From contig OZ254086.1 of NCBI GenBank assembly GCA_965267575.1, positions 1,120,001 through 1,184,000 on the forward strand: 64,000 nt of DNA. Reading direction: 5' to 3'. Positions within the stretch are counted from its first letter, which is position 1. Every line of letters begins with the position of its first letter. The notes beneath the pieces are model-generated. The model had not been told where the DNA came from and ran no database searches. It was given only the letters and a program-made list of their open reading frames with translations. Below, piece by piece: positions 1 to 15,857 of the stretch. The position numbers were made by a program, and so were the translations under genes. This stretch comes from Calditrichales bacterium. GTDB taxonomy: Bacteria; Calditrichota; Calditrichia; Calditrichales; J004.

Positions 1-876
1 CGAAACCGGTGTATCGCCTTCAAAACGCACATCGCGGGCAGTGCGTGCCGCAAACAGGTGAAGTTCGATGTTTAACGGTAAAGCCCCGCCGACATAGATG
101 CCGCGCTTACCCGCATTCTCCGAGCTGCTGATATGGGGCCGGGCGCGCACGCCGCGGAAGCGCAACGAGTAGGAGGGCAGCAAACTTTTGCGCTTCCCGA
201 AGGAGCCGCCCATTACCAAGCCGGAAGCCCACTGCACGTTGTAATCCCCGGCAATAATGCGCCAATTTTTTAAATCACCTTCTACCGCAAAATTAAAGTG
301 GTCGGTGTAGCTTTCTTCGCCGGGATCTTTTTGGGCAATGGCCGCCAGCGACCACTGCCGGTTCCATTCAAAATTCAGCCGCGTGTAGCTGTAGAAAGCG
401 TCCCCGGCATAACGGCCATCCTCAATCTGCGGGATTTTCTCAATCTTGTATGTCTGGCGCTGCACAACCTGGCGTCGCAGAGGCCGGGCCGGACGTGTAT
501 CCAGCAAATCGCCCAGCAGGCCGTAGTATTCGTCACCCAAGATTGCGCGCAATGTACGCCGGCCATCTACTTCACCATTGCGCTCGCGCCAGGCCAGGAT
601 GGAATCGGCCGCCCACTGCGGCATAAACGGTATATCCAGCAATTGCCCGCGATTGGCCTCGTTAACGCGCACCGGATTGCTCTTGTAATAATAGAACAGT
701 TCGCTGCTGCCATCATCGTCATCATCGCTCAATTCAGGCAATAAAACACCCAGGCTGTCACTCTGTCCATAAAGAGACGAGGCAATCAGCAAAGAGGCGA
801 AAGCCAGCCGCGTGAGGAAAAAGGAACAAATTCCGTATTGCTTAGAAAAAGTGAAACAACTATATTGAAACTTCAT
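1..876 (-). CDS. ComEA-type helix-hairpin-helix domain protein (FCB-group family), runs off the left end of the window
   Basis: Not in the ORF track. Manual minus-strand translation from ATG at 876 is open to position 1: hydrophobic N-terminus, NPVRVNEANRGQLLDIPFM (HhH-like), then YAGD...KDPGE...IIAGDYNVQWASGLVM. Start codon uncertain. Confidence 0.7.
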   Translation of the reverse strand, partial: MKFQYSCFTFSKQYGICSFFLTRLAFASLLIASSLYGQSDSLGVLLPELSDDDDDGSSELFYYYKSNPVRVNEANRGQLLDIPFMPQWAADSILAWRERNGEVDGRRTLRAILGDEYYGLLGDLLDTRPARPLRRQVVQRQTYKIEKIPQIEDGRYAGDAFYSYTRLNFEWNRQWSLAAIAQKDPGEESYTDHFNFAVEGDLKNWRIIAGDYNVQWASGLVMGGSFGKRKSLLPSYSLRFRGVRARPHISSSENAGKRGIYVGGALPLNIELHLFAARTARDVRFEGDTPVS

Positions 877-903
877 TTGACCTGACTCGCGAGGATTGTA
901 TTT

Positions 904-1137
904 ATGGCAAAAGGAACGCCCAAAAATAAGAAATCTGCATCTAACGTCCAAAGCTTCACTTTTGGCCGCCGCAACCTGATGCTGCTTGGTTTAGGTATAC
1001 TGGTCATTGCAATAGGATTTGTTTTAATGGCCCAGCCTCCTGTGGATGGCTTTTTATCGCGCACACTGGCCCCTATTCTTCTGGTGGTTGCCTACCTGGT
1101 CATCATCCCGATTTCAATCCTTGCGAAAAATAAATGA
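904..1137 (+). CDS. DUF3098-like small membrane protein
   Basis: 77 aa, two TM helices, FGRRNLMLLGLGILVIAIGFVLM...TLAPILLVVAY pattern; TTGCTT-N17-TATATT upstream (838-866). Confidence 0.75.
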   Translation: MAKGTPKNKKSASNVQSFTFGRRNLMLLGLGILVIAIGFVLMAQPPVDGFLSRTLAPILLVVAYLVIIPISILAKNK

Positions 1138-1143
1138 CAGGTA

Positions 1144-1172
1144 TTGAAAAAAAATAAAAAGGTCAGTATCTT
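1144..1172 (+). promoter_or_regulatory. sigma70-type promoter of the tRNA-Val locus
   Basis: TTGAAA (1144-1149)-N17-TATCTT (1167-1172), about 35 nt upstream of the first tRNA-like copy. Confidence 0.6.
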
Positions 1173-1207
1173 AAAAGTCTTGATTTTGAGTAAATAGCTC
1201 AATACCT

Positions 1208-1259
1208 GGGCGCTTAGCTCAGCTGGTCTAGAGCATCCCGATTTACATCGGGAGGGTCA
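1208..1259 (+). pseudogene. Truncated tRNA-Val-like copy: 5' half with the anticodon arm replaced by a palindrome, no T-arm
   Basis: 1208-1235 is identical to the tRNA-Val 5' part (GGGCGCTTAGCTCAGCTGGTCTAGAGCA), followed by TCCCGAT-TTAC-ATCGGGA, GGGTCA, then unrelated sequence. Confidence 0.85.
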
Positions 1260-1284
1260 TTGACCGGCAAAAAACGAAAATCTT

Positions 1285-1359
1285 GGGCGCTTAGCTCAGC
1301 TGGTCTAGAGCACCTGCCTTACAAGCAGGGGGTCACTGGTTCGAATCCAGTAGCGCCCA
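1285..1359 (+). tRNA. trnV: tRNA-Val (anticodon TAC), CCA not encoded
   Basis: Cloverleaf: acceptor GGGCGCT/AGCGCCC, D-arm GCTC/GAGC, anticodon stem CCTGC/GCAGG with loop CT-TAC-AA, T-arm ACTGG-TTCGAAT-CCAGT, discriminator A. Confidence 0.96.
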
Positions 1360-1363
1360 CACC

Positions 1364-1394
1364 AAACCCCGGTCCAATGGTGCCGGGGTTTTTT
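1364..1394 (+). terminator. Intrinsic terminator after tRNA-Val (repeated at 1715-1745 and 2066-2096)
   Basis: AAACCCCGG...CCGGGGTTTTTT hairpin with U-tract. Confidence 0.75.
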
Positions 1395-1408
1395 ATTTTG
1401 GAGGATGT

Positions 1409-1657
1409 ATGTACTGGACCTACGTCATATACTCCCCATCTCATGATATCTTCTATATCGGCCAAACCAATAATCTGCAAGACCGCCTGCTGCGCCACAA
1501 CCAAAACAGAAATAAATACACAAAAGGCAAAGGACCCTGGCAGCTCTTTTTCTCTAAAGCCTTTGATACACGAGCGGAAGCAGTGCAACTGGAGCAAAAA
1601 CTAAAACGCTACAAAAACAAAGACTACCTAAAGGAGCGCTTGGCTGACCTGGTCTAG
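1409..1657 (+). CDS. GIY-YIG nuclease family protein (small, UPF0213/YhbQ-like), copy 1
   Basis: 82 aa: YTYVI...FYIGQTNNLQDRLLRHN...KYTKGKGPW...EAVQLEQKLK; RBS GGAGG upstream. Confidence 0.9.
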   Translation: MYWTYVIYSPSHDIFYIGQTNNLQDRLLRHNQNRNKYTKGKGPWQLFFSKAFDTRAEAVQLEQKLKRYKNKDYLKERLADLV

Positions 1658-1710
1658 GGCATCCCGATTACTATCGGGAGGGCCACCTGGTTCGAATCCA
1701 GTAGCGCCCA
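1634..1710 (+). pseudogene. Pseudo-tRNA-Val copy with a palindromic anticodon-arm replacement
   Basis: GAGCGCTTGGCTGACCTGGTCTAGGGCA-TCCCGAT-TACT-ATCGGGA-GGGCCACCTGGTTCGAATCCAGTAGCGCCCA; mismatches in the acceptor, D and T stems. Confidence 0.85.
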
Positions 1711-1759
1711 CACCAAACCCCGGTCAAATGGTGCCGGGGTTTTTTAGTTTGGAGGATGT

Positions 1760-2008
1760 ATGTACTGGACCTACGTCATATACTCCCCTTCTCATGATAT
1801 CTTCTACATCGGCCAAACCAATAATCTGCAAGACCGCCTGCTGCGCCACAACCAAAACAGAAATAAATACACAAAAGGCAAAGGACCCTGGCAGCTCTTT
1901 TTCTCAAAAGCCTTTGATACACGAGCGGAAGCAGTGCAACTGGAGCAAAAACTAAAACGCTACAAAAACAAAGACTACCTGAAGGAGCGCTTGGCTGAGC
2001 TGGTCTAG
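1760..2008 (+). CDS. GIY-YIG nuclease family protein, copy 2
   Basis: Identical to copy 1 except D->E near the C-terminus (LADLV vs LAELV). Confidence 0.9.
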   Translation: MYWTYVIYSPSHDIFYIGQTNNLQDRLLRHNQNRNKYTKGKGPWQLFFSKAFDTRAEAVQLEQKLKRYKNKDYLKERLAELV

Positions 2009-2061
2009 GGCATCCCGATTACTAACGGGAGGGCCACCTGGTTCGAATCCAGTAGCGCCCA
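1985..2061 (+). pseudogene. Pseudo-tRNA-Val copy with a palindromic anticodon-arm replacement (one mismatch)
   Basis: Same as 1634-1710 but the hairpin reads TCCCGATTACTAACGGGA. Confidence 0.85.
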
Positions 2062-2110
2062 CACCAAACCCCGGTCCAATGGTGCCGGGGTTTTTTATTT
2101 TGGAGGATGT

Positions 2111-2446
2111 ATGTACTGGACCTACTTCATAAACTCCCCATCTCATGATATCTTCTACATCGGCCAAACCAATAATCTGCAAGACCGCTTGCTGCGCCAC
2201 AACCAAAACAGAAATAAATACACAAAGGGCAAAGGACTGCGGCAATTGTACTTCTCCAAAGCTTTCGGAAACTGCGGAGATGTGATACGGCATGAAAGAA
2301 AATTGAAATACTACTATCCACATTTGATTTTTGCTTCTTTACATTTTTATAATTTGACGTTTCATCTTTTACATATAGCATCAGCTTATGCGCTTAACTT
2401 TTCTCGCTGTCTTATATTTTATAATGGGCAGTTTTTTGAATGTTGA
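2111..2446 (+). pseudogene. Degenerate GIY-YIG copy 3
   Basis: Near-identical to copies 1 and 2 up to YTKGKG, diverged through ERKLK, then reads into unrelated AT-rich sequence overlapping the next gene start; no pseudo-tRNA tail. Confidence 0.7.
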
Positions 2447-5400
2447 AGCATTCAATGATATTAAAATTGAACGGCTCCCACTTGATGATCCTTTGAAGGG
2501 AGCATTCACATTAGACATTCTTCAGGATAAGTATGGGTTTTTATGGTTTGCTACCGATAGGGGGCTTGTCCGATATAATGGGTACAACTTTCACATTTAC
2601 AAAAACCAAGTGCAAGACACTACCTCATTGTCGTCTAATCACGTGCTTTCGCTTTTTGAGGACAATTCAGGTTCGATTTGGGCCGGAACTTTGATTCACG
2701 GCTTGAACAGGTTAGACCGCACGACTGGAAAGTTTATCCGATATGTCGGAAAGCGGGATACCAGCACAACCAACCCCTATGAATTGGGCGCTAACCAGAT
2801 TTTAGATATATATGAAGACAGCCAAAACAATTTTTGGGTCGGTACTACATTAGGTTTATTGCGCCTGGAAAAGGGAAAATATAAAAAATTTCTACCGGAC
2901 AATGAAAACCCGAACTCTATCAGCGAAGGGCCCGTTACGTGTGTACATGAAGATAGCCGCGGAAGGCTTTGGATTGGTACAAATAGCGGCTTAAATCTTT
3001 ACGATAGAAAACAAAATAAATTCTCCTACTTTGATAACGCCAGCATGACCCGCCTACAAAAGGCCATTAACTGTATGACCGAGGACAGGAAGGGCAATTT
3101 ATGGATAGGGACATATGATGGATTGATCAGGTTTAATCCGGAAACGAAAACATTTAAGATTTTCAGACAGGAACCTGAAAACTCACAAGGTCTCAACAAT
3201 AATGTAATTTGGGACATACAGGAAGTCCGCTCCGGGCAATTATGGATAGGTACAGAGGGCGGTGGCGTTAATATCCTAAATCCAAAAACAAATGTATTCA
3301 GCTATGTAAAACATGACCCCGAAGATCCATATAGTCTTAACTCAGATTATGTCACCGCCATTTACGAAGACCGTACAGGGATAATATGGATTGGCACGGG
3401 AAGCATGTGGGGACGTGCCAAAGGCAAGGGTTTTGGTATTAATAAGTATGATCCGGACAAAAAACAATTTCATAACATTTCTATTAATCCTTTCTATACG
3501 GACTCGACGGTTTATATCGATGCGTATTCAGTATTAGTAGACCATTTAGGAGTTTTGTGGATTGGAACTAACGGCCAGGGCCTTATTAGCTATGATGAAT
3601 CAACGGACGAATATAACAGATATCTTCACGATCCTTCTGACGAATCCACCATCAGCGAAAACGGTATTATGGGTATGTATGAAGACAAAGCCGGCAAGCT
3701 TTGGTTTGGAACCTGGAACAGTGGATTAAATCTGTTTAATCGAGAAACAAAATCTTTCAGGCGCTATCAACATGATCCCAACGATCCTTTAAGCATCAGC
3801 TCCAATCGTATAAACGAAATGCTCGAAGATAGTAAGGGGCGTTTCTGGATTGCGACTTTTTATGGAGGGTTGAATCTATTTGATCGTGAAAATGACACAT
3901 TCAGACATTACGTTCGAAATCCTCAAGACCCAAATAGCATCAGTACAAACCAAACCAGCAGGTTGTTCGAGGATCATTTTGGTAACTTGTGGATATCTAC
4001 CTGGAGCGGAGGCTTAAATAAATTTAATTTTGAGGAAAACAAATTTGTCCGCTTTATGCACGACCCTAAAGACCCGAAAAGCATCAGCCACAATATTGTA
4101 AGAACAGTGGTTGAAGATGAAACATATGATCTTTGGGTAGCTACTGCGGGTGGACTTAATAAATTTAGTCGCTCTACAGGGACATTTAATTGTATTACAG
4201 AAAAAGACGGTCTTTTAAATAACCAAATTTCAGGTATCCTAAAAGATGACAGTGGCAGTTTATGGATTCAGGCGCGATATGGAATAAGCCGTTTTAATCC
4301 TACAACCCAAAAAATAAAGAATTATGACACTAATGACGGTTTAGTCAACTCCGCCTATTTAAGTGGGCCACCATATAAAAACAAAGCAGGAGAAATGTTT
4401 TTTCCCGGAAGATCAGGTGTGGACTTTTTTCATCCTGACAGCATAAAAGACAACCCTCATATTCCACCGATCGTCATAACTCGTCTGACCAAATATAACA
4501 GTGAAGTCAAAAAAAATGAACCACTCATTATTGATGATTTTTCTGGGAAAAAATCTCTCTTTCTTACGTATAAAGACCGCATATTGAATTTCGAGTTTGC
4601 TGCTCTTAACTACAGAAATCCTGCAAAAAACCAATATGCCTATAAACTCGATGGCTTTAACGATTCCTGGATTCAGCTTGGTACAAAACACGATGTCACC
4701 TTTACTGACCTTTCTCCGGGAAATTATACGCTGCATGTCCGCGGCTCCAACAACGACGGCGTTTGGAACATGGAGGGCACATCCCTGGAGATATATATTG
4801 CCCCGCCCTGGTGGCGCACCTACTGGGCATACGGCCTCTATTTTGCCATTGTGCTGGCCGCGCTGTTGAGTATCCGGGCCTATGAACTAAAAAGGCAGCG
4901 CCTTAAATACGATCTGAAAATGGAGCATGAACAGGCTGAAACCCTGAAAGAACTGGATCGGATGAAGTCACGCTTCTTTGCCTCCATCTCGCATGAATTC
5001 CGCACACCGCTCACGCTGATCAGCGGGCCCGTTGAACGGCTGCTTAAAAAGGGCCGGGCAGATCAGATAAAAGATCTAAAGCGTATTCAAAGTAATGCCG
5101 GCCAAATGGACAAGCTGGTAAAAATGTATCTTGAGCTGTCAAAACTGGAAAGCGGCAAGCTTGTTCTGCATCGGGAAAAATGCGAACTCATCTCGCTGCT
5201 GAAGATCGTGCTGGCCGCTTTTGAATCCCGGGCTGAAGCTGAGAATAAAAATCTGCGCTTTAAGACAGATCTTGCCCGTGCCATGGGGCAGGTTGATAAA
5301 GATATGTTTGCGCTAATCATGAACAACCTGCTTTCCAACGCTTTTAAATTCACCGCTGAAAACGGGGAGATTGAAGTATCCGCGCAGCTGAAACCCGGGG

Positions 5401-6500
5401 CAACTGAAAAAGAGAAAAAAGACCATATTGAAATAGCCGTTAAGGATAGCGGTATTGGCATAGCGCCGGAGCAGCAGCAGCGTATTTTCGAAATGTATTT
5501 TCAGGTGGACAATGAAATTAACAAGCGCATCAGCGGAACAGGCATTGGGCTGGCCATGGTTAAGGAGTTGGTGGAAATGCATGAAGGAGAGCTGGCATTA
5601 GAAAGCACGCCCGGCAGGGGTAGCAGATTCAGTATTGTATTGCCCATCATGGAAGCACAAAAGCAAAGCGGAATAGCCGAAGCGTTGGAAGAAAAACCAT
5701 CGCTGAGCGAGAAAGAACAATCAGACATTTCAACAGAACAATCCACACAACCGCGTATTTTGATTGTAGAAGATAACCATCAAATGCTGGATTATATTAA
5801 GAGCCATCTGGAAGAAAAATATAAAACACAAAGCGCTTCCGATGGCCGCAGAGGATTCGAAAAAGCGCTGAAATTTAATCCACAGCTTATCGTAAGTGAT
5901 GTGATGATGCCGGAAATGGACGGCTTTGAGTTTTGCGCCAGACTGAAACAGGATTTCCGTACCAGCCATATCCCGGTTATTCTGCTTACGGCAAAAATCC
6001 AGGAACAGGATATGTATAAAGGACTGGAAACCGGCGCGGATACCTACATCACAAAGCCCTTTAAAGCCCGGGAACTGCTGATTCGAATCGGCAACCTTAT
6101 AGAAAACAGGCAAAGGCTGCACAAAAAGTTTCTTACCGAAAAACATGTTGATTTTGGCGAAATAAATATTACATCCGCGGATCAACGCTTTTTGGAGCAT
6201 TGCCGCCGGGTTGTAGAAACCCACCTTTCCGACGAAGACTTTACAGTTGATGCCTTTGCCAAAGAAGTGGCTTTTAGCCGCGTGCAGCTGCACCGCAAAC
6301 TCAACGCTTTGACCGGTCTTTCCGCTTCGGCATTTATCAAAACGATGCGTCTTAAGAAAGCGGCTATACTTCTTAAATCCGGTTTTGGTAACATTGCACA
6401 GGTAGCTTTCGAAGTGGGTTTCTCCAACCCCTCCCATTTTTCCAGTGCCTTTAAAAAGATGTATGCAATGGCTCCTTCCGATTACGTCCGCAAAGGCTAA
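2388..6500 (+). CDS. Hybrid two-component system sensor kinase/response regulator (beta-propeller repeats, Y_Y_Y, HisKA, HATPase, REC, AraC HTH)
   Basis: Repeated ED..G.LWIGT motifs; YAYKLDGFNDSW...PGNYTLHVRGSNNDGVW; TM helix; SISHEFRTPLTLI; NLLSNAFKFT; GTGIGL; SDVMMPEMDG; VAFEVGFSNPSHFS. Confidence 0.95.
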   Translation: MRLTFLAVLYFIMGSFLNVEAFNDIKIERLPLDDPLKGAFTLDILQDKYGFLWFATDRGLVRYNGYNFHIYKNQVQDTTSLSSNHVLSLFEDNSGSIWAGTLIHGLNRLDRTTGKFIRYVGKRDTSTTNPYELGANQILDIYEDSQNNFWVGTTLGLLRLEKGKYKKFLPDNENPNSISEGPVTCVHEDSRGRLWIGTNSGLNLYDRKQNKFSYFDNASMTRLQKAINCMTEDRKGNLWIGTYDGLIRFNPETKTFKIFRQEPENSQGLNNNVIWDIQEVRSGQLWIGTEGGGVNILNPKTNVFSYVKHDPEDPYSLNSDYVTAIYEDRTGIIWIGTGSMWGRAKGKGFGINKYDPDKKQFHNISINPFYTDSTVYIDAYSVLVDHLGVLWIGTNGQGLISYDESTDEYNRYLHDPSDESTISENGIMGMYEDKAGKLWFGTWNSGLNLFNRETKSFRRYQHDPNDPLSISSNRINEMLEDSKGRFWIATFYGGLNLFDRENDTFRHYVRNPQDPNSISTNQTSRLFEDHFGNLWISTWSGGLNKFNFEENKFVRFMHDPKDPKSISHNIVRTVVEDETYDLWVATAGGLNKFSRSTGTFNCITEKDGLLNNQISGILKDDSGSLWIQARYGISRFNPTTQKIKNYDTNDGLVNSAYLSGPPYKNKAGEMFFPGRSGVDFFHPDSIKDNPHIPPIVITRLTKYNSEVKKNEPLIIDDFSGKKSLFLTYKDRILNFEFAALNYRNPAKNQYAYKLDGFNDSWIQLGTKHDVTFTDLSPGNYTLHVRGSNNDGVWNMEGTSLEIYIAPPWWRTYWAYGLYFAIVLAALLSIRAYELKRQRLKYDLKMEHEQAETLKELDRMKSRFFASISHEFRTPLTLISGPVERLLKKGRADQIKDLKRIQSNAGQMDKLVKMYLELSKLESGKLVLHREKCELISLLKIVLAAFESRAEAENKNLRFKTDLARAMGQVDKDMFALIMNNLLSNAFKFTAENGEIEVSAQLKPGATEKEKKDHIEIAVKDSGIGIAPEQQQRIFEMYFQVDNEINKRISGTGIGLAMVKELVEMHEGELALESTPGRGSRFSIVLPIMEAQKQSGIAEALEEKPSLSEKEQSDISTEQSTQPRILIVEDNHQMLDYIKSHLEEKYKTQSASDGRRGFEKALKFNPQLIVSDVMMPEMDGFEFCARLKQDFRTSHIPVILLTAKIQEQDMYKGLETGADTYITKPFKARELLIRIGNLIENRQRLHKKFLTEKHVDFGEINITSADQRFLEHCRRVVETHLSDEDFTVDAFAKEVAFSRVQLHRKLNALTGLSASAFIKTMRLKKAAILLKSGFGNIAQVAFEVGFSNPSHFSSAFKKMYAMAPSDYVRKG

Positions 6501-6528
6501 ATGTAACCTGTAGAATTGAAAATGTAAC
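6499..6528 (+). promoter_or_regulatory. Putative AraC/HTCS operator (direct repeat)
   Basis: AAATGTAAC at 6499-6507 and 6520-6528 (21-bp period), between the HTCS and the downstream gene. Confidence 0.5.
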
Positions 6529-6626
6529 GTATCTGTTAGAGTACACTCCCCAACACCTCCTAAAATTTAATCAAAGGCGCTGTCAAAGTTGACGGCGTCT
6601 GGCTCAAACCAAATTGGGAGGTTGTC

Positions 6627-9209
6627 ATGTTTCAATTCACTAATTATATAATATCCTGTGTTTCCGGGAAAAACGGATATTTTGCCTTTACCCGCAGTAA
6701 ATGGACGCTTTTCTTAGTATTATGCTTTTTTTCCTTTTCTCATTCTCAGAATGTAGAACTGCTTGCACACTTTGATGAACACTCTTTTAGTGACGTATGG
6801 GGATATGATTCTGAAGATGACGGGCATTTTGTGATTGCGGGTGCGACAGAAGGAACATACGTCTACGATGTATCAGATGCGGCTTCGGGAGAAATTACTG
6901 AAATTGCTTTTTTCCCTGGTCCTGGTTCCAGGTGGCGTGATATAAAGACTTACAAAAACTACGCATACGTCGTTAATGATGATGGTGACGGTGAGCTCTT
7001 GATACTTAACATGTCATACATACCTGACAGTGTGATTATTGTTAGCCAGAAAAGCATTAATAATTATCATAACCTTTTTATTGACGAAACAAATGGCCTC
7101 ATGTATTGGGCAGATGATTCACAAGATGGCAAGACAATTATTATGTCATTGGAAGATCCGGAAAATCCTGTATACGTCGGCGAATTTGGAACAGAAACTC
7201 ATGACATATTTGTACGTGGCGGACTGGCATTTACAGCTGAGGGCAGAAAAGGATCCGTTGGTATTTTTGATGTTTCAAAGTCGGATTCTGTGAGCGAAAT
7301 AACCAAGCTACCAATCCCAGATCCAGGATATGTGCACAATACCTGGACAAATTCTGATAACTCAATCTTAATTACAACAGAAGAAACCAGATTCAAAACA
7401 ATTAAAATTTGGGATATAAATGATCTTCAAAATATCGAGCTCTTATCTACTCATATAGGCCCAAGCTTTTTGCCTCATAATGCCCATATTGAAGGTGATT
7501 ATGCATACGTTTCACACTACAGGGCAGGCATGATCGTCATTGACTTAAAAGATCCGCGCAAAAGCGGTATTGTCGGTAGATATGATACCCACTTGGAAAA
7601 TGATGAGCCTCAGTTTGGTGGAAACTGGGGTGTTTATCCGCATAGCTCCTCAGGAAACATCTACCTTAGTGGGGAAAACGGCCTTTTTGTAGTTAAGTTT
7701 AACGGCACAGGTGTTCATCATTTCTCCGGAAATATAATCGATGCAGAAACCAACGAATTTGTTGGAGATGCGCGCATAGATATTAAAGACTTCTGGCATT
7801 CCTTTTACAGCGATTTTAATGGGAATTTCGGTTTCGGATACGGGATTTCAGATTCAATCGAATTTACTATTGGTGCTTTTGGCTACATACAAGAAAACGT
7901 TAAAAAAGAAATTGTAAGCCATACTTACGAAAAACTAAACGTTTCCCTTAAGCCCGCACCGCGCAGTGATCTTAGAGGCATCATAAAAAATATGGAAAAC
8001 CAACCTATTTTAAATGCAAGGGTTAGCATTACCGTCAATGATATTTATTTAGATGATCCGATAACCTATCAAACATTTACTAATGAAAACGGCTTCTATT
8101 TATTCGAAAACCTTCCAGTAAGTGAGGAAAATGTAAGATTTTATACAAACTTCACTGTGGACAGATCATTTCCTTTCGCACCATTAACAATAGATACTTT
8201 AAGTATTCCAGATATCGGGGAAACGGTGGTAGATGTGAGTCTTTCGACCGCGGATGTTTTAGTAATTAACTTAGATTCTTCTAATGATTATAGCACTTTC
8301 GTAACGTCAAGCCTAAAAGAATTAGGCAAAACTGCTACAGTTATTACCGAACAAAGCAGACTCGACTCATTAAGTTCCGGCGACTTAAGCCTGCCCAATG
8401 AAAATTATATCATCGTTATCAGTGGCGACGCGGAAACAGGATTTATCAGTGAAAGCGCATTGGATACCCTTCAAGCTTACGTAGAGAGTGGCGGGAACTT
8501 TATCTTAAGTGGTCAAAACTTTGCCGAATTCCTGAGTACTGCGGATTCTAATTTTCTTAACTGGCTTAACATAGGCTTTGAAGGTAACAGTGATGCAAAA
8601 ATGCTTACCGGACTCCCTTTTACCTCTATCGGAGAAAACGTAAACCGCCTGGGACTTCTATCCACAGAATCTGCTGACAACCAGGAATCACCGGAAATTT
8701 TGAATATTCTTGATAGTGTAAACACAGTACCCATTTTGGAATATCGGGGCTCTGATGGTGAATACGGCGCTGTCGGGACAAAATTTGGTGAAGAACAGGG
8801 ACGCGTGTTTTTTGCCGGCTTTGGTTTGGAAGGCGTCTCAGCAGGAAGTCCGGCTTTCACTAACCGTGCTCAGTTAATTGATTTGATTGAGGATTGGTTT
8901 CAGGAGCCGTTTACAACCATACCTATCGGGGAAACAGGCACCGTAATCAAATTTGAACTTGAACAAAATTTTCCAAATCCCTTCAATCCCTCAACAACAA
9001 TTCGTTATACGCTTGCAAAGCCCGGACACGTGAAAGTAGACATATATACAATCACAGGTAAAAAAGTTGTTCGGTTGTTTGACGGGATGCAACAGGCGGG
9101 CACACACTCTCTGGTTTTTGATGCGTCGGACCTGGCCTCCGGACTCTATTTTTATAATCTCCAAACGCCTCAGTTTAAAGCTACGCAAAAGATGCTATTA
9201 GTACGATAG
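6627..9209 (+). CDS. Choice-of-anchor B / LVIVD-repeat secreted protein with T9SS CTD
   Basis: SDVWGY, WRDIKTY, HNLFID, HNTW, PHNAHI, SHYRAG, GNWGVYP; carboxypeptidase-regulatory-like domains; C-terminal QNFPNPFNP...KMLLVR. Confidence 0.85.
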   Translation: MFQFTNYIISCVSGKNGYFAFTRSKWTLFLVLCFFSFSHSQNVELLAHFDEHSFSDVWGYDSEDDGHFVIAGATEGTYVYDVSDAASGEITEIAFFPGPGSRWRDIKTYKNYAYVVNDDGDGELLILNMSYIPDSVIIVSQKSINNYHNLFIDETNGLMYWADDSQDGKTIIMSLEDPENPVYVGEFGTETHDIFVRGGLAFTAEGRKGSVGIFDVSKSDSVSEITKLPIPDPGYVHNTWTNSDNSILITTEETRFKTIKIWDINDLQNIELLSTHIGPSFLPHNAHIEGDYAYVSHYRAGMIVIDLKDPRKSGIVGRYDTHLENDEPQFGGNWGVYPHSSSGNIYLSGENGLFVVKFNGTGVHHFSGNIIDAETNEFVGDARIDIKDFWHSFYSDFNGNFGFGYGISDSIEFTIGAFGYIQENVKKEIVSHTYEKLNVSLKPAPRSDLRGIIKNMENQPILNARVSITVNDIYLDDPITYQTFTNENGFYLFENLPVSEENVRFYTNFTVDRSFPFAPLTIDTLSIPDIGETVVDVSLSTADVLVINLDSSNDYSTFVTSSLKELGKTATVITEQSRLDSLSSGDLSLPNENYIIVISGDAETGFISESALDTLQAYVESGGNFILSGQNFAEFLSTADSNFLNWLNIGFEGNSDAKMLTGLPFTSIGENVNRLGLLSTESADNQESPEILNILDSVNTVPILEYRGSDGEYGAVGTKFGEEQGRVFFAGFGLEGVSAGSPAFTNRAQLIDLIEDWFQEPFTTIPIGETGTVIKFELEQNFPNPFNPSTTIRYTLAKPGHVKVDIYTITGKKVVRLFDGMQQAGTHSLVFDASDLASGLYFYNLQTPQFKATQKMLLVR

Positions 9210-9246
9210 CATCCCGTAATTATCTGAATCAAGAAGGTGATAAGTA

Positions 9247-10628
9247 TGAGAGTTCTTCTTACTACATTTTTAGCTTCTTTCGTTTCTCTATACAATTGTA
9301 GCGAAAATGAAGACTCTGTTAACGAAGGGGCCATTAGCTATAACACTGTAGACAGCATTATATATTCGAAACATGTAAATCCGTTATTGGTTGAGGCATC
9401 GGCCACTTTAGTACAAAATGGTATATATCCTGAAGGACTTAAAGTGGATACATGGGAAAACCTGATTAGCGGTTTTAGCGGTGGTGAAGTTTTGATACCT
9501 TATGATGCGGAAAATAGTTTGCTTATTGAGTTATTATCGAAAATGGATTTAGGCGACGATGCGCCAGACACTTCTGAAATAAACTTTTTGAAACGCTGGA
9601 TTAATGAAGGCGCGAAAAATGATGCCGGCGAAGTTCCCTATGAAAACAGCAGCGATTTGGTCTATGTCTGCAACCAGGGTGACGCCAGTGTTTCGGTGAT
9701 CGACGCGCAGGCGCAGCTGGTTATCCGGCGCATTGACCTGCAGGAACTGGGCTATTCGGCAAGCGCCAAACCGCACCACATTGCCGTGGAAGCCGATGGC
9801 AGCGCCTGGTACGTCAGCCTGATTGGCGAAAACAGGGTGCTCAAATTCAACCGCGCCAACCAAATGCTAGGATCGGTTGAGACACAGGTGCCCGGACTGC
9901 TCTATATACATCCCATAAGCAGTAAACTTTATGTGGGCCGCTCCATGTCCGCCGTAAACCCGCCTTCGTCCATCGCCGTGGTTAACCGCGATCAGATGAC
10001 GCTAATGACGGAAATCCCGCTGGTGTTTGACAGGCCCCACGCGCTGCTGGCACAATCCAACGGCAAATATCTCTTTTCGGCCAGCCTCGCCGAGAACCGA
10101 ATCGCCATAATCGATGTGGCGACGGATGAAGTGGAAGATTACTTTACCGACAGCGGCGACGCTTTTGTTTATGTGCACTTTTCGGAATCGGCCGACAACG
10201 GCAAACTCTACGCGACGGGTCAGGTAAGCAACAAGCTGCACATTTACAACGTTTCCGCTTCCGGCGAAATCAGCGTTGCCAATACGGTTGATGCGGATAT
10301 GGCGCCGTGGCATCCGCTGACGCTCGCCGATGGCAATGTTGTCTTTGGCAACCAGAAATCCAATACGGTCAGCATCGTTGATCCGGCCATGGCCTCAATC
10401 AGCAAAACAATCAGCGGCAATGGTTTGTCTATGCCTCACGGCAGCGCCATCAGCAACGACGGGCGCTATCTGTTTATCTCCAGTCGCAACATCAACGGCG
10501 GCTATACACCACGCTACCCGTTTGATGTTGCCGCGGAAACGGGTACAGTGGCGGTGATTGACCTGCAGACGCAGAGCCTGGTAAAAGTGCTGGAAATCGG
10601 CGCGCAACCCAGCGGCATGGGAGGTTAA
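9247..10628 (+). CDS. YncE/YVTN-type beta-propeller lipoprotein with an N-terminal cytochrome-c-like domain lacking CxxCH
   Basis: Signal peptide ending LYNC; YVCNQGDASVSVIDA, KPHHIAV, RPHAL, GTVAVIDL propeller blades. Start is either GTG 9237 or the in-frame ATG about 10 nt downstream. Confidence 0.75.
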
Positions 10629-10863
10629 AGCGATTGCTGTTAAGTCCCTTATTTTCCTTATGACCTAAATTAGTTCTGTTTCAAAACCTCCGGCAGGATC
10701 TGTTGTTTTACATATCTTCTGTTCCCCACCGGGCGTAAAGCGCTCAGATCCTGCCTTTTATTGCCAATAAAGCATTAAAATCTTCTTAAAAAGTAGGTGA
10801 TGCCTATGATTGTGAAAATTTGATTTTGTGAAAACATACTAACTTTAAACTTTGAGGTTAACC

Positions 10864-11190
10864 ATGAAATCCAGTTTAAATTCTTTAATTAAATATTTGT
10901 TTGTATTAATGCTCATAGCCTGATGTATGCAGGATCCATCACCGGTATCATCAGATTCCGCTGAGTCAAATAAAGATTCACAAATTCATGAAGCTCTGAC
11001 TGAACTGGAAGAAACCGCCTCTGAGATCAATAGCAGCATATTAAATAAAAAGTCCGTCAGCGGAATGGTTATTCTACCGGCGGGTTCGGCTGACGGCCTT
11101 AAGAGCGCTGTTGACAAGGCGGGGCCACACGGAATAGTACTTGTCAAATCGGGCCTACACGTAGATACTTCTGTTGATCCATGTTTTTAA
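10864..11190 (+). pseudogene. Lipoprotein remnant: in-frame TGA in the lipobox, 3'-truncated
   Basis: ATG 10864 MKSSLNSLIKYLFVLMLIA-TGA(10921)-C-MQDPSP...; ends after GSADGLKSAVDKAGPHGIVLVKSGLH, which resembles the start of a beta-helix domain. Confidence 0.65.
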
Positions 11191-11230
11191 AATGATACCC
11201 GGACTTTGATTTAGAACGATTTGAAAAAAT

Positions 11231-11262
11231 AAAAGCCCCGGCTTCTTAACGTCCGGGGCTTA
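11231..11262. terminator. Hairpin, possible terminator
   Basis: AAGCCCCGG...CCGGGGCTT with A/T-rich flanks. Confidence 0.5.
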
Positions 11263-11400
11263 TTAATTTGGCGAAGAATGTATTATTTTCCAGCAGGAAG
11301 TATCCTCTTTACTTAGAGTCTCGCAGATACATTCCCATTTCAATTTGTCAGATTATTTTCGTATTATCCCTGCCTCGAATATTAATGGAAATACACTTTC

Positions 11401-12582
11401 ATGAGCACACACGATTACGGATCCGATGTCCACGTTGTGGAACAGGAAGGGCGGCAATTTATTATTGTCGGGACGGCGCATATTTCACAGCAAAGCGCCG
11501 ACCTGGTACGAAAAGTCATAGAACAGGAAAAACCGGACACGGTTTGCGTGGAGCTGGATACACAGCGCTATAAGTCTTTAAAGGAAGAAAGTCGCTGGGA
11601 AAACCTGGATCTGAAAACCGTTATCCGCGAAAAACAGCTTTCCACATTGCTGATTAATTTATTGCTGGGATCGTATCAAAAGCGGCTGGGCAAAAAACTG
11701 GGCGTTAACCCCGGCGTGGAATTGCTGGAGGCAACAAAGGCCGCCGACGAAAATGACATCCCGGTGGAGCTGTGCGACCGTGATGTGCGCATTACTTTAA
11801 AACGCGCCTGGGGCCATCTTTCATTTATGGAAAAAATGGGGCTGCTTTCATCCGGATTGGCCGGTTTGCTGAGTGATGAAGAGATCAGCGAGGAGCGGCT
11901 GGCGGAGATACGACAAAAAGACGTATTGAACGAAATGATGCGTGAGCTGGGTGAAGCCATGCCCAGCCTGAAGCACGTGCTGATCGATGAGCGCGACCAG
12001 TACATCAGCGAGAAGATGAGCCTTGCCGGGGGCAAGAAAATCGTAAGCGTTGTTGGCGCGGGCCACGTGGAAGGAATTCTGAAAACGCTGCAGGACAAAA
12101 GCGAAACCGACATGGAAGCGATCGAACAGATACCGCCGCCAAGTCCATGGCCAAAGGTAATTGGCTGGGCCATACCGGTCGTTATCCTGGCATCCATCGC
12201 TTACATCGGTTTTACGCAGGGCGCGGGGCGCGCGGGAGACAACGCGTTGTTCTGGGTTCTGGCCAATGGTATCCCCAGCGGAATCGGCGTGCTGGCCGCG
12301 CTTGGCCACCCCATCACGGTGATAACGGCCTTTCTTGCCGCACCCTTTACGAGTTTGACACCCCTTATCGGCGCGGGCTATGTGGCTGCTTTTGTTCAAG
12401 CCTACGTGCAACCGCCGCTTGTGAAAGAATTTAAAACCGTTATGGATGACGCGGCTAAAATAGCATCGTGGTGGAAGAACCGCCTGCTTCGTGTTTTTCT
12501 TGTATTCATCCTGGCATCTTTGGGCAGCGTTGTCGGCACATACGTTGGCGCCTACGAGATCATCAGCAATCTCTTCCGCTGA
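11401..12582 (+). CDS. TraB/GumN (PrgY-like) family protein
   Basis: IVGTAHIS...PDTVCVELD, DRDVRITLKRAW, LIDERDQY, VVGAGHVEGI, C-terminal TM helices. Confidence 0.9.
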   Translation: MSTHDYGSDVHVVEQEGRQFIIVGTAHISQQSADLVRKVIEQEKPDTVCVELDTQRYKSLKEESRWENLDLKTVIREKQLSTLLINLLLGSYQKRLGKKLGVNPGVELLEATKAADENDIPVELCDRDVRITLKRAWGHLSFMEKMGLLSSGLAGLLSDEEISEERLAEIRQKDVLNEMMRELGEAMPSLKHVLIDERDQYISEKMSLAGGKKIVSVVGAGHVEGILKTLQDKSETDMEAIEQIPPPSPWPKVIGWAIPVVILASIAYIGFTQGAGRAGDNALFWVLANGIPSGIGVLAALGHPITVITAFLAAPFTSLTPLIGAGYVAAFVQAYVQPPLVKEFKTVMDDAAKIASWWKNRLLRVFLVFILASLGSVVGTYVGAYEIISNLFR

Positions 12583-12609
12583 TTTGGCGCTTATAAAGCG
12601 TAAATTATA

Positions 12610-12759
12610 TGACAGAATTTCTGTTCTTCTGTCAGACCTGCGCGACATCGTTCTGCACGCTAAGCAGGCCTCGGTATATTGCAATCACAAAAAAGACCAT
12701 TAACTTGTTGATTATTAATAACTTAAATGCACGCCCTTTATAAGTGGCACAGAAATTGA
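12610..12759 (+). promoter_or_regulatory. Putative sigma54-type promoter with IHF site and upstream inverted repeat for groESL
   Basis: TGGCAC-AGAAA-TTGA (12745-12759); IHF consensus AATCAACAAGTTA on the minus strand (12701-12713); TGACAGAA-N9-TTCTGTCA (12610-12634). Confidence 0.55.
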
Positions 12760-12832
12760 TAAAAGAAGGAACGTCTTGTTATAAAATTTGGCAGACCTGA
12801 AACAACTAAAAAAATAACAAAGGAGAACAAGA

Positions 12833-13123
12833 ATGAACATCAGACCATTAGGTGATCGTCTGTTGGTAAAACCGGCATCTGAAGAAACCAAGACAGCCGG
12901 TGGAATTATTGTTCCGGACACCGCGAAAGAAAAGCCCATGCGTGGCGAAGTTGTTGCGGCCGGTCCCGGAAAACTGGGCGATGACGGCAAGCGCCAGCCC
13001 ATGGATGTAAAAAAAGGCGATATGGTTATGTACGGCAAGTACGCCGGAACCGAGTTTAAAATGGATAATACCGATTATTTAATACTCTCGCAAAGCGATA
13101 TTTTCGCAATCGTTGAAAAGTAA
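12833..13123 (+). CDS. groES: Co-chaperonin GroES
   Basis: MNIRPLGDRLLVK...KTAGGIIVPDTAKEKP...GEVVAAGPG...YGKYAGTE. Confidence 0.98.
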   Translation: MNIRPLGDRLLVKPASEETKTAGGIIVPDTAKEKPMRGEVVAAGPGKLGDDGKRQPMDVKKGDMVMYGKYAGTEFKMDNTDYLILSQSDIFAIVEK

Positions 13124-13156
13124 ACCCCATTCACATAAAAATAAAAGAGGTTGAAA

Positions 13157-14794
13157 ATGGCTAGTAAAGATATACTTTTTGATCAGGAAGCTTTTAATAA
13201 GCTTAAAAAAGGTATCGATGTGCTTGCCCGGACCGTTAAAGTAACATTAGGTCCCAAAGGCAAAAACGTTGTTATCGATAAGAAATTCGGTGCGCCGACC
13301 GTAACTAAAGACGGCGTAACCGTTGCCAAGGAAATTGAACTGGAAGATCCGTTTGAAAACATGGGCGCCCAGATGGTTAAAGAAGTTGCGTCCAAAACAA
13401 GCGATGTGGCCGGTGACGGTACCACAACCGCTACGGTTCTGGCCCAGGCTATTTTTACGCAAGGTCTGAAAAACGTCACCGCCGGTTCCAATCCTACCGA
13501 ACTGAAGCGCGGTATTGATGCTGCTGTTCTTAAAGTTGTTGCGCATCTGCGCAGCATGTCCCGTGAAGTTTCCGGCAAGAAAGAGATTGCCCAGGTGGGT
13601 ACGATTTCTGCCAACAACGACAAAACGATCGGCGAACTGATTGCTGACGCCATGGACAAAGTAGGCAAAGACGGCGTTATCACCGTTGAAGAAGCCAAGT
13701 CCATTGAAACCACCCTCGATGTGGTTGAAGGTATGCAGTTCGACCGCGGTTATGTTTCCCCTTACTTCGTAACAGACAGCGAAACTATGGAAGCTGTTCT
13801 GGACAATCCCAACATTCTCATTTATGACAAAAAGATCAGCGCCATGAAGGACCTGCTGCCGATACTTGAAAAATCGGCCCAGAGCGGCAAGCCTCTCGTA
13901 ATTATCGCTGAAGACATCGAAGGCGAAGCGCTGGCTACACTGGTTGTTAACAAGCTGCGCGGCACATTGAAAGTAGCCGCCGTTAAAGCACCCGGTTTTG
14001 GTGATCGTCGTAAAGCCATGCTGGAAGACATTGCCATCCTGACCGGTGGTCGCGTTATCAGCGAAGAGACCGGCTTCAAGCTGGAAAGCGCTTCTTTGGA
14101 TGATCTGGGTACGGCTGCCCGCATCACGATCGATAAAGAGAATACAACGATCGTTGAAGGCGCCGGCTCCAGCGAAGATATCAAAGGCCGTGTGGCTCAG
14201 ATACGCAGCCAGATTGAAAACACGACCAGCGACTACGACCGCGAAAAACTGCAGGAACGTTTGGCCAAGCTGGCCGGCGGTGTTGCCGTGATCAAAATCG
14301 GTGCCGCTACCGAAGTTGAAATGAAGGAAAAGAAAGCCCGCGTGGAAGATGCTTTGCATGCAACCCGCGCCGCTGTGGAAGAAGGCATCGTTCCGGGTGG
14401 TGGTGTGGCCCTGCTGCGCTGCCTGAGCGTTCTGGAAAACATGGAGCTGGAAGGCGACCAGCAGATTGGTGTTGAGATCGTGCGCCGCGCCCTTGAAGAG
14501 CCGCTGCGTCAGATCGTCGCCAACGCAGGCCTGGAAGGTTCCGTGATCGTACAGAAAGTTAAGGAAGGTAAAGATGATTACGGCTTTAACGCAGCCACCG
14601 AAGAGTTCGAAGGTCTGCTGGAAGCCGGTGTTATCGACCCGACCAAGGTAACACGCAGCGCCCTGGAAAACGCTTCGTCCGTATCCGGCCTGCTGCTGAT
14701 GACCGAAGCGGTTATCGCCGAACATCCGGAAGACGAGCCTGCAACACCTGCGGGTGGCGGTATGCCTCCGGGCGGTATGGGCGGAATGTACTAA
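13157..14794 (+). CDS. groEL: Chaperonin GroEL
   Basis: [45 protein letters not shown]-terminal tail; ATG at 13157. Confidence 0.99.
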
Positions 14795-14813
14795 AATCCA
14801 ACCGCTTAAAAGC

Positions 14814-14844
14814 AAAAAGGCAGTCCATCGGGCTGCCTTTTTTT
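14814..14844 (+). terminator. Intrinsic terminator of groESL
   Basis: AAAAAGGCAGTCC-ATC-GGGCTGCCTTTTTTT. Confidence 0.85.
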
Positions 14845-15198
14845 GTTTGGGGAAGATTTGGAACTTTCAAATATCAAAATTCAAATAACAAATAAATTTT
14901 AAATACCAAAAAGAATAACGTCAATTGGCATTGTCATCTCGAAGGGCTACTGCCCGAGAGAACCCGCTCGCGTACACCGATCTGTAAAAATCTTCTCTGC
15001 GGAACAACTGACTAGTTTTTCTACCTTTGCAGATCAATTACAATTTTTACCTCGAGTGTACTAGCGGTGAATTCTTTAATCGTTTTGAACAATAGATTCG
15101 TCTACTGGTGAGATGACGTAGTCAGCAGATTTCACCTTGTTCATTTCCATGAAAGACTGAGCATCCACCCGACGTTCCCACAAATATATCCATGTTTT

Positions 15199-15655
15199 CT
15201 AATTGGATATTTTTTGAACAAATGGTCTGCTAGTGGAACTGGATAAGACCATAAACAGCCCCGATATATCCGGATTTTTGCTTGTCATGATTATTTCTTC
15301 AAAAATAAAATTGATATGAATGCGAATAACGAAACCACAAATAAATAAATCAGAATTTTTTCGCCAAAAACAACCATACAAAAAACTCCAACAACGAGTG
15401 TCGAAAAAATAAGGCAAAAGTAGTCCCAGCTTTTTTAGTTTAATCTTAATAGTGCCTTTAATTAAGCTGAATACTACAAAACTATTTCTTACAGTTGTTA
15501 TAACAGAATAAAAAAACAAGACCAGCATAATTAGTGCTTTGAGAGAATACTCATACCAAATAAAAAGTGATACCGATACCATCAAGATAGCTTTTATAAA
15601 TATCTCAAGTGCTTGATTGCTTTTGTATTTTTACAAAACGCTTATTTTTTATCAT
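15199..15655 (-). other. AT-rich hypothetical membrane protein, possibly a frameshifted remnant
   Basis: 128-aa hydrophobic ORF 15199-15585. Its frame is open a little further upstream, and an ATG at 15655 would join it with a 1-nt indel in an A-run. Confidence 0.3.
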
Positions 15656-15739
15656 TACTATCTAAATCTCACATCGCGGTGTGGTTAAACGGCCAACCTC
15701 GATAAAAAAATCGGGACAGGCCGGATTGGCAGATGTTAA

Positions 15740-15813
15740 TGTCATCCCGGCCTTAGCGCCGGGATCTTTTCCCAGTTTCCCAAATACTATCCTGCCGACG
15801 TACCGCGATGACA
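15740..15813. repeat. REP-like element with TGTCATC...GATGACA inverted ends
   Basis: TGTCATCCCGGCCTTAGCGCCGGGATCT palindrome and a distal GATGACA; similar GTCATCTC...GAGATGAC ends at 14933-15117. Confidence 0.55.
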
Positions 15814-15857
15814 AATTTCAGAATAAGACAATAATTCTTAATTCCTAATTCTTTGAT

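Follow-up and report, generated by a model that had tools for sequence, protein, structure and literature searches.

Why should the only valine transfer RNA (tRNA-Val) gene of a bacterial genome be accompanied by partial copies of itself and by a series of small nuclease genes? The question is raised by positions 1208-2446 of a 64,000-nt stretch of DNA, hereafter the window, from a Calditrichales bacterium (GenBank assembly GCA_965267575.1, contig OZ254086.1, positions 1,120,001 to 1,184,000), which belongs to a one-contig genome of 4.73 Mb. The repeated unit found there, which we call the cassette, consists of a terminator and ribosome-binding site, a gene for a single-domain GIY-YIG nuclease of about 80 amino acids (aa), and a partial copy of the neighbouring tRNA (a pseudo-tRNA) in which one arm, usually the anticodon arm, is swapped for a palindrome. 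A functional tRNA gene immediately precedes the cassette or, in other lineages, follows it, so that direct repeats of the tRNA 3' half and terminator flank the cassette. We conclude that the locus is probably a selfish nuclease-plus-hairpin cassette residing at tRNA genes and amplified by recombination between tRNA-derived repeats, with cleavage by the nuclease as a presumed step. An earlier reading made from the letters of the window alone (the sequence-only reading) had proposed a minimal element of nuclease and hairpin that sits at tRNA genes, keeps one intact tRNA and expands in tandem, and these parts of the proposal stand; nicking and recombination as the engine of the expansion we can only infer.

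Structure of the array at tRNA-Val

All components that the sequence-only reading had named, from the half-tRNA and the intact tRNA-Val to the 351-bp units with terminator, ribosome-binding site and GIY-YIG open reading frame (ORF) and the pseudo-tRNAs closing the first two of them, were recovered at the positions it gave, all on the forward strand. A promoter-like site (1144-1172; TTGAAA, 17 nt, TATCTT), recognised by consensus scan only, precedes a left fragment (1208-1259) that sequence comparison identifies as a copy of tRNA-Val positions 1-28, a palindrome in place of the anticodon arm (1236-1253; TCCCGA, a 6-nt loop, TCGGGA) and 6 nt of variable loop, followed by unrelated spacer. The intact tRNA-Val(TAC) at 1285-1360 is the sole one in the genome, is called as normal by ARAGORN and scores 73.7 bits in Rfam (gathering score 29). 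From its T arm to the inside of the third ORF runs a single tandem array (1336-2237) with a period of 351 bp, 2.6 copies and 97% matches according to Tandem Repeats Finder. Each unit comprises a terminator-like hairpin, a GGAGGA box and a GIY-YIG ORF: the first hairpin (1364-1391), which carries a T run, and a GGAGGA about 5 nt ahead of the ATG lead into ORF 1 (1409-1657, 82 aa), the second hairpin (1715-1742) into ORF 2 (1760-2008, 82 aa), and the third (2066-2093) into ORF 3 (2111-2446, 111 aa), a probable relic that extends into the beginning of the following gene. A pseudo-tRNA closes each of the first two units (1634-1711 and 1985-2062), and its 5' part contains the final eight codons and the stop of the preceding ORF. 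This stop sits in the former D loop, 4 nt ahead of the palindrome (9 nt before its CCCGA core). At four loci of related nucleases (L007, L008, L010 and L012, all of the Val clade described below) the frame stays open through the D-arm piece and the palindrome, so that the pseudo-tRNA encodes the tail of the protein.

Units 1 and 2 share 343 of 351 positions; among their 8 differences, 4 synonymous and 1 non-synonymous change separate ORF 1 from ORF 2, whose proteins differ at one residue. Unit 3 matches both at 193-195 of its first 200 positions (96-98%), and its identity to unit 2 drops abruptly to 45 of 100 from position 2238 onward. Because of this sudden collapse, ORF 3, whose first 127 nt are homogenised with the other units, looks like an older, diverged copy with a 5' part converted to the sequence of its younger neighbours; it has also lost the conserved residues P43 and A58 and has no pseudo-tRNA behind it. 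The promoter hexamers of 1144-1172 also precede tRNA-Val at the empty site of a same-family relative (L035), and since they now precede the left fragment in the window, this fragment probably marks the original 5' end of the tRNA-Val gene. Domains of integrases, transposases or reverse transcriptases, which the sequence-only reading had likewise noted as lacking nearby, are absent from the eight ORFs that we chose from the 17 of at least 120 aa within window positions 1-16000.

The hairpin of the cassette does not correspond to the full tRNA-like cloverleaf; a specific palindrome in place of the anticodon arm forms it. In the left fragment and both pseudo-tRNAs, the 17-nt arm is swapped for TCCCGA-loop-TCGGGA, so that palindromes at 1236-1253, 1662-1679 and 2013-2030 (the last with one change that leaves a 5-bp stem) flank the nuclease genes on both sides, an arrangement that recurs in relatives. 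As single-stranded DNA, the 18-nt palindrome folds with -11.1 kcal/mol (z-score -5.4). The 3' part of the pseudo-tRNAs, that is T arm, acceptor strand and terminator, is identical to that of the working gene, and the 5' part has diverged. When ARAGORN was run on the locus, as had been suggested, it returned beside the intact tRNA-Val two 'tRNA-???' calls (1634-1711, 1985-2062) with abnormal anticodon loops and 'anticodons' of 2 and 4 letters. Taking the Rfam gathering score together with a 7-nt anticodon loop as the mark of a tRNA, both pseudo-tRNAs fall short, with scores of 27.0 bits against a threshold of 29 and of 20.9 against 47 (tRNA-Sec model).

The CCCGA..TCGGG palindrome is found at 59 of 149 related loci, compared with 4 after shuffling. 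We mapped the 10 nt on either side of 104 palindrome copies outside real tRNAs onto the nearest tRNA: 50 copies are exact replacements of positions 27-43 of the cognate tRNA (46 of 100 if the identical loci L008 and L057 are counted once), one flank fits these positions in 14 further copies, 11 lie in the T arm, 13 map nowhere, and the remainder are scattered or ambiguous. Loop length and loop sequence vary freely among relatives. The precision of the replacement may be understood if the palindrome is an island of non-homology within a tract that gene conversion holds identical to the adjacent tRNA, which would be why identity reaches right up to the palindrome edges.

Palindrome type differs between clades. 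The CCCGA type accompanies tRNA-Val, tRNA-Asp and tRNA-Glu, a CCGCC..GGCGG type accompanies Cys, Gly, Asn, Thr and one of three Pro copies, and neither occurs with Ser; as the native anticodon stem of tRNA-Glu fits the CCGCC pattern too, Glu copies are uninformative for that type. Pseudo-tRNAs at seven Cys, Gly, Pro and Gln loci (L086, L091, L097, L099, L101, L075 and L165) carry a CCCGCC..GGCGGG palindrome, which at L075 and L165 takes the exact place of the anticodon arm. At L082, ARAGORN calls a tRNA-Asn about 130 nt upstream of the ORF with the CCCGCC..GGCGGG palindrome in its variable region; this may be a pseudo-copy that still passes as a tRNA. A metagenome-assembled genome (MAG) of Moraniibacteriota, a very distant organism, has a palindrome 228 nt upstream of its ORF (L156) that equals the 16-nt core of the window's palindrome letter for letter, including the loop.

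All three ORFs match the Pfam GIY-YIG family PF01541 (63.9, 63.9 and 36.9 bits; cut-off 22.6). Nine residues are invariant across 20 aligned homologues (Y5, Y16, G18, R26, H30, T38, A58, E62 and K66), among them the catalytic-type residues Y5, Y16, R26, H30 and E62, which include the Tyr of GIY, the Tyr of YIG, the Arg and the metal-binding Glu that we take to be the catalytic residues of the GIY-YIG superfamily. The nearest solved structures are the UPF0213 proteins BH0048 (1zg2, E 1.3e-14) and EF2693 (1ywl, 3.8e-13), followed by SLX1 (7cq2, 4.7e-8) and, marginally, I-TevI (0.0044); with its single domain and 82 aa, the protein belongs with the UPF0213/YhbQ/SLX1 branch. Pfam reports no DNA-binding extension, only overlapping nuclease-type families on one stretch of the 82 aa, and no NCBIfam family is matched above its cut-off (grpIintron_endo, the only match, scores 16.3 bits against 56.05). 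PHROGs gave no match, and the PADLOC library only weak, partial matches to PDC-S14 (17.9 bits over 27 residues). Among orthologues of the Val clade, synonymous differences per site are saturated (pS 0.73-1.1) and non-synonymous ones low (pN 0.21-0.34); together with the 4:1 ratio of changes between units given above, this shows a gene that is old and under purifying selection.

Four sequencing runs of one sample, possibly the source of the assembly, contain the stretch as short-read contigs. Flank contigs end at 1336 and resume at 2197, none spanning the array, and repeat contigs of 189-381 nt bear the unit-distinguishing letters at about 1.5-3 times the flank depth. This depth fits a multi-copy array, the exact number of three copies being unproven by short-read contigs.

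Distribution, gain and loss of the cassette

The tRNA link recurs well beyond the window. Homologues of the nuclease are encoded in 33 of 41 genomes of the order (own genome counted), many of them adjoining contig ends or arranged as tandem pairs with a period of about 290-440 bp, and 21 of the first 29 loci fetched contain a tRNA, always on the strand of the ORF. A profile search over 40 same-order genomes gave 80 distinct GIY copies (one place, G035:C279, left out). At 34 of these a tRNA lies on the same strand no more than 120 nt upstream, 9 show a T-arm motif within 200 nt, and 6, as later copies of arrays, have the tRNA 121-450 nt upstream, so that 49 of 80 are found in tRNA-anchored arrays; contig ends truncate a further 14. 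The tRNAs belong to nine isotypes (Glu, Asp, Ser, Cys, Val, Thr, Pro, Asn and Gly). The recurrent order is zero to eight 5' tRNA fragments, intact tRNA, terminator, ORF and pseudo-tRNA, the last combining a D-arm piece and the palindrome with an identical duplicate of the tRNA 3' part; nothing of the 5' acceptor strand is retained. Relics bearing stop codons are frequent among relatives, and so are gene-less scars. At L023 (reverse strand as fetched; about 500-1400 when oriented), eight tandem units of about 113 bp stand ahead of an intact tRNA-Ser(CGA), and the nuclease ORF begins 1 nt past this tRNA. Each unit joins an AT-rich upstream region to the initial 40 nt of the tRNA, whose D loop is enlarged by a 21-nt insert.

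For other phyla, a pattern scan of named genome records with a single protein yielded 80 loci from Bacteroidota, Ignavibacteria, Chlorobiota, Caldithrix, Marinimicrobia, Patescibacteria, Dehalococcoidales, Thermodesulfovibrionia and a few Proteobacteria-like MAGs. The highest identities (66%, 64% and 60%) are on a par with those of the same-order orthologues at the Val locus, at 62-68% (64-71% by tblastn). A tRNA is found at most 150 nt upstream at 46 loci, 151-500 nt upstream at 7 and directly after the ORF, the front form of the cassette, at 15, which makes 68 of 80 tRNA-linked; 6 loci are cut, and within 500 nt no locus has an opposite-strand tRNA. The sequence-only reading would have been abandoned if homologous nucleases elsewhere had lacked an association with tRNAs or pseudo-tRNAs, and the counts in both sets speak for the association. 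Together with the repeat statistics of the window, they exclude chance as the origin of the locus. In two loci of the front form (L174 and L179, about 1100-1560), the ORF starts inside a 5' copy of tRNA-Ala with the palindrome in the D loop or anticodon arm, and an intact tRNA-Ala follows directly past the stop.

In the window's own genome the three copies described here are the only close GIY copies, two more small GIY-YIG genes being distant and without a nearby tRNA; ARAGORN makes 44 calls genome-wide, including the two pseudo-tRNAs and the single tRNA-Val(TAC), and the palindrome occurs at 10 places. One of these, outside the window, is a decayed pseudo-tRNA-Asp without an ORF (about 941826-941880 of the contig; TCCCGA, 4-nt loop, TCGGGA), about 70 nt behind tRNA-Asp (941695-941769), which has the appearance of a scar left by a lost cassette. 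Neither the tRNA-Glu nor the tRNA-Ser(CGA) site of this genome has such a pseudo-tRNA or cassette.

A comparison of occupied and empty sites, which had also been suggested, found the tRNA-Val site filled, scarred or empty among relatives. The order of a DUF3098 gene and tRNA-Val is kept at all 30 loci examined. Eight of these have a GIY gene, 6 have palindrome-bearing pseudo-tRNAs only, and 16 have neither, one of which ends inside the tRNA and cannot be judged; the position of the cassette at this one syntenic site is conserved in two families. One site with neither belongs to a same-family genome in which tRNA-Val is 100% identical and is preceded by promoter hexamers matching 1144-1172. For a single-copy tRNA-Glu cassette, the downstream gene lies across the tRNA cluster in same-genus genomes, which leaves no alignable empty site.

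Nuclease clades follow the type of tRNA, with one switch. On a tree of 61 copies the tRNA label changes 21 times, compared with a mean of 40.2 in shuffled data (0 of 200 shuffles as low), a test that is inflated by relatedness. The Val clade (SH-like approximate likelihood-ratio support 95) includes one copy at a tRNA-Asp gene, the pseudo-tRNA of which derives from tRNA-Asp and the terminator of which resembles the kind present at Val loci in other genera (identity at 46 of 58 and 40 of 45 aligned bases, with an alignment score of 26.5 versus 8.0-13.5 for Asp-locus elements). Because a Val-clade copy combines a Val-type terminator with an Asp-derived pseudo-tRNA, we conclude that terminator and ORF moved jointly, the tRNA-derived parts being made anew at the new site. 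This copy (L011, 1370-2015) is followed by a second one, and its pseudo-tRNA-Asp contains a palindrome in the T loop in addition to the one that replaces the anticodon arm. In another case (L006/L052) the T stem of the intact tRNA-Val has two compensatory pair changes, and the pseudo-copy retains the T stem of the intact tRNA-Val of a same-genus relative (L041), which hints that the 3' half of the working gene can arrive with the cassette. The two copies also have unrelated terminators behind them.

Mechanism and alternative explanations

Two known systems resemble the cassette from different sides. By analogy, it would work most like the Ssn nucleases, in that a bare domain has a cognate hairpin on both sides, and would look most like SegB in its tRNA context and tandem amplification. 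According to passages of the Ssn study, SsnA, a 94-aa single-domain GIY-YIG protein, binds a hairpin repeat exclusively in single-stranded DNA, cutting a few nt upstream, and mutants Y6A, Y17A and E64A back the catalytic role of Tyr, Tyr and Glu; most homologues are flanked by hairpin repeats, and the authors note a hairpin-gene-hairpin layout like that of insertion sequences (Chenal et al. 2025, PMC11893778). The cassette shares with these enzymes the single domain of about 80-95 aa, the hairpin-forming repeat on both sides, catalytic residues at almost equal positions (Y6, Y17 and E64 in SsnA, Y5, Y16 and E62 here) and, as far as these passages go, a hairpin that differs by enzyme lineage. 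It differs in that its hairpin sits in tRNA copies, 'tRNA' occurring 0 times in the main text of PMC11893778, and in that no genome-wide repeat expansion is seen, with 10 sites in the own genome. The comparison with the Ssn family (cd10448) covers the published SRM motif, the layout and the residues. The SRM motif was itself considered as the hairpin of the cassette and was rejected, as the pattern fits neither the window nor the related loci.

If the cassette is a selfish element, its nuclease would bind its own palindrome in single-stranded DNA and nick alongside it, as Ssn enzymes do, and the break would be repaired through recombination between tRNA-derived repeats. Repair could have three outcomes: the cassette may be copied into an empty allele, tandem units may be added (here, two young units before an older, partly converted one), or the ORF may be deleted, palindrome-bearing pseudo-tRNA scars remaining. 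Transcription would probably occur by read-through of the tRNA terminator. More tentatively, and with somewhat less confidence than we place in the selfish nature of this one locus, we suggest that such cassettes form a new class of minimal mobile element, in which a GIY-YIG domain without additions, paired with a palindrome of its own, would invade tRNA genes through partial tRNA duplication and arm swap; the conserved tRNA halves would serve as portable homology arms, and host recombination would copy, amplify and delete the cassette and spread it between phyla. On this view the nuclease of each clade would act at specific sites, probably on single strands only, and would recognise a hairpin particular to that clade.

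Several observations weigh against a mobile, selfish element of this kind. No tRNA was found at 17 of the 80 same-order copies and at 6 of the 80 cross-phylum loci, and the pattern used finds the palindrome at only 59 of the 149 related loci. The Ssn SRM motif occurs 0 times at window positions 1101-2500, at 1 of 149 loci compared with 2 after shuffling, and 32 times genome-wide. Possible vectors gave little: none of 7 pattern matches in viral contigs was confirmed as a relative, 50,697 phage records contain no relative, and a plasmid collection gave one weak match at 38.5% identity. Neither cleavage nor an excised form, copy-number polymorphism or recent transfer was observed in the sequence data examined. 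Since the closest relatives are just 62-71% identical and synonymous sites are saturated, the Val-locus cassette may be old and mostly inherited vertically, with losses. The logic by which an occupied allele is immune fails, because the intact tRNA stays beside the cassette, and every step of mobility would need host functions, as a hydrolytic GIY-YIG enzyme cannot rejoin DNA.

Seg-type homing endonucleases are defined by a catalytic domain joined to a DNA-binding domain, and SegB carries such a DNA-binding part; the cassette has the gene beside tRNA genes and the catalytic domain alone. An enzyme of this type would recognise and cut the double-stranded tRNA gene, for instance at the T or anticodon arm, and the palindrome would only mark or protect the spare copy or be a scar of repair. 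This is the most serious competitor, and we consider it unlikely. Its attraction lies in the fact that the 27-bp site of T4 SegB, which drives inheritance of its tRNA region, has a conserved 11 bp equal to the tRNA T-psi-C motif, as stated in passages of PMC2330249, and that T6 SegB amplifies a tRNA-Tyr plus segB segment in tandem, segB homologues co-localising with phage tRNAs, as stated in passages of PMC13096335. As far as these passages go, a GIY-YIG gene among tRNA genes, tRNA sequence in targeting, tandem amplification and many tRNA isotypes are common to SegB and the cassette; nuclease clades that track tRNA type, and the 11 of 104 palindromes in place of the T arm, would suit such an enzyme as well. 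SegB is phage-borne and cuts double-stranded DNA, whereas the cassette is chromosomal and encodes a bare 82-aa catalytic domain without a DNA-binding extension; its signature palindrome and arm-swapped pseudo-tRNAs are not described in the SegB passages of PMC2330249 and PMC13096335. Two further facts argue against a SegB-like mode: the intact tRNA stays uncut beside every cassette, and one palindrome serves the Val, Asp and Glu cassettes, yet the palindrome shifts with the nuclease clade. Since it is shared across these three isotypes and changes with the nuclease, the palindrome itself appears to be the recognised partner.

More doubtful is a domesticated host function, in which nuclease and palindrome would modulate recombination or transformation at tRNA loci, as proposed for SsnA and the NTS in Neisseria, or would guard tRNA genes, which are common integration sites, from incoming elements, the repeats being a functional array. 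Long-term purifying selection and the same syntenic position in two families agree with this, and the hypothesis is put forward by the Ssn authors in passages of PMC11893778. A host function is hard to reconcile with patchy occurrence, 16 of 30 orthologous sites being empty, with the frequency of stop-codon relics and gene-less scars, and with a multi-copy family that has variable tRNA targets; the weak, partial PADLOC matches and the mere 10 palindrome sites in the own genome also tell against it.

We regard it as very improbable that the pseudo-tRNAs are working tRNA-like RNAs, be it decoys, odd-loop suppressor tRNAs or processing signals that free the nuclease mRNA. ARAGORN does call both, with 6- or 8-nt loops, 6 of 7 acceptor pairs are retained in the window, and the single-strand fold has a z-score of -4.6; against this, both score under the Rfam thresholds, the D stem is broken, the palindrome loop is free in length and sequence, and the 5' acceptor strand is wholly unkept in relatives. 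A tRNA-decoy module, the alternative offered by the sequence-only reading, found no support, as relatives do not preserve a tRNA-like 5' part in the pseudo-tRNA, and the odd-loop suppressor tRNA was rejected on its sub-threshold Rfam scores, broken D stem and unkept 5' acceptor strand. Least credible of all is that the array is an assembly artefact or an inert recent duplication unlinked to the nuclease: short-read contigs do fail to span it, which leaves the three copies unproven, but the units have differences of their own (units 1 and 2 disagree at 8 positions, and the 3' half of unit 3 has diverged), the unit-specific letters recur in contigs of four runs at about 1.5-3 times flank depth, and tandem pairs of such genes are found in many relatives.

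Relation to other elements and wider meaning

Proteins of the UPF0213/YhbQ/SLX1 group have the same size and motif pattern as the cassette nuclease, under depositors' names that point to neither a tRNA nor a palindrome; SLX1 additionally possesses another domain and works with a partner. Elements of the IS200/IS605 (insertion sequence) and REP/RAYT kinds resemble the cassette in having a small gene between subterminal hairpins and in accumulating gene-less hairpin copies, and differ from it in encoding a HUH tyrosine transposase, whereas the cassette has a hydrolytic GIY-YIG enzyme with no means of rejoining DNA and keeps its hairpins within tRNA copies. Integrative elements that target tRNA genes likewise keep the tRNA intact by a flanking 3' duplicate and leave arrays of partial tRNA copies; in contrast, the cassette has no integrase among the eight ORFs scanned within 16 kb, has a unit of 351 bp and carries a swapped arm in its repeat. 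A full-text literature search turned up no account of small GIY-YIG genes that accompany arm-swapped pseudo-tRNAs at bacterial tRNA genes; subscription journals and the supplements of the Ssn and SegB studies lay outside this search, and those supplements may list tRNA-adjacent cases. This kind of cassette is apparently undescribed. What the present comparison adds is a presence/absence series at one syntenic site, a Val-to-Asp switch with a travelling terminator, clade-specific palindromes and a quantified arm replacement.

If our interpretation is true, some of the most conserved bacterial genes host tiny cassettes that are annotated merely as 'GIY-YIG nuclease family protein' and as unexplained pseudo-tRNAs. 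This would account for odd tRNA calls and for frequent assembly breaks at tRNA loci, where many homologues are found at contig ends, and would provide a test system for nuclease-stimulated tandem amplification in cellular chromosomes, parallel to phage SegB. Hairpin-specific small nucleases would extend past the Ssn motif, which is of practical interest for single-stranded-DNA tools, and it would become testable whether tRNA genes draw mobile DNA through universal microhomology and hairpin-forming DNA.

Elsewhere in the genome, outside the window and without a tRNA nearby, three TCCCGA..TCGGGA palindromes follow one another about 750 bp apart, at positions 3524397, 3525162 and 3525882 of the contig.

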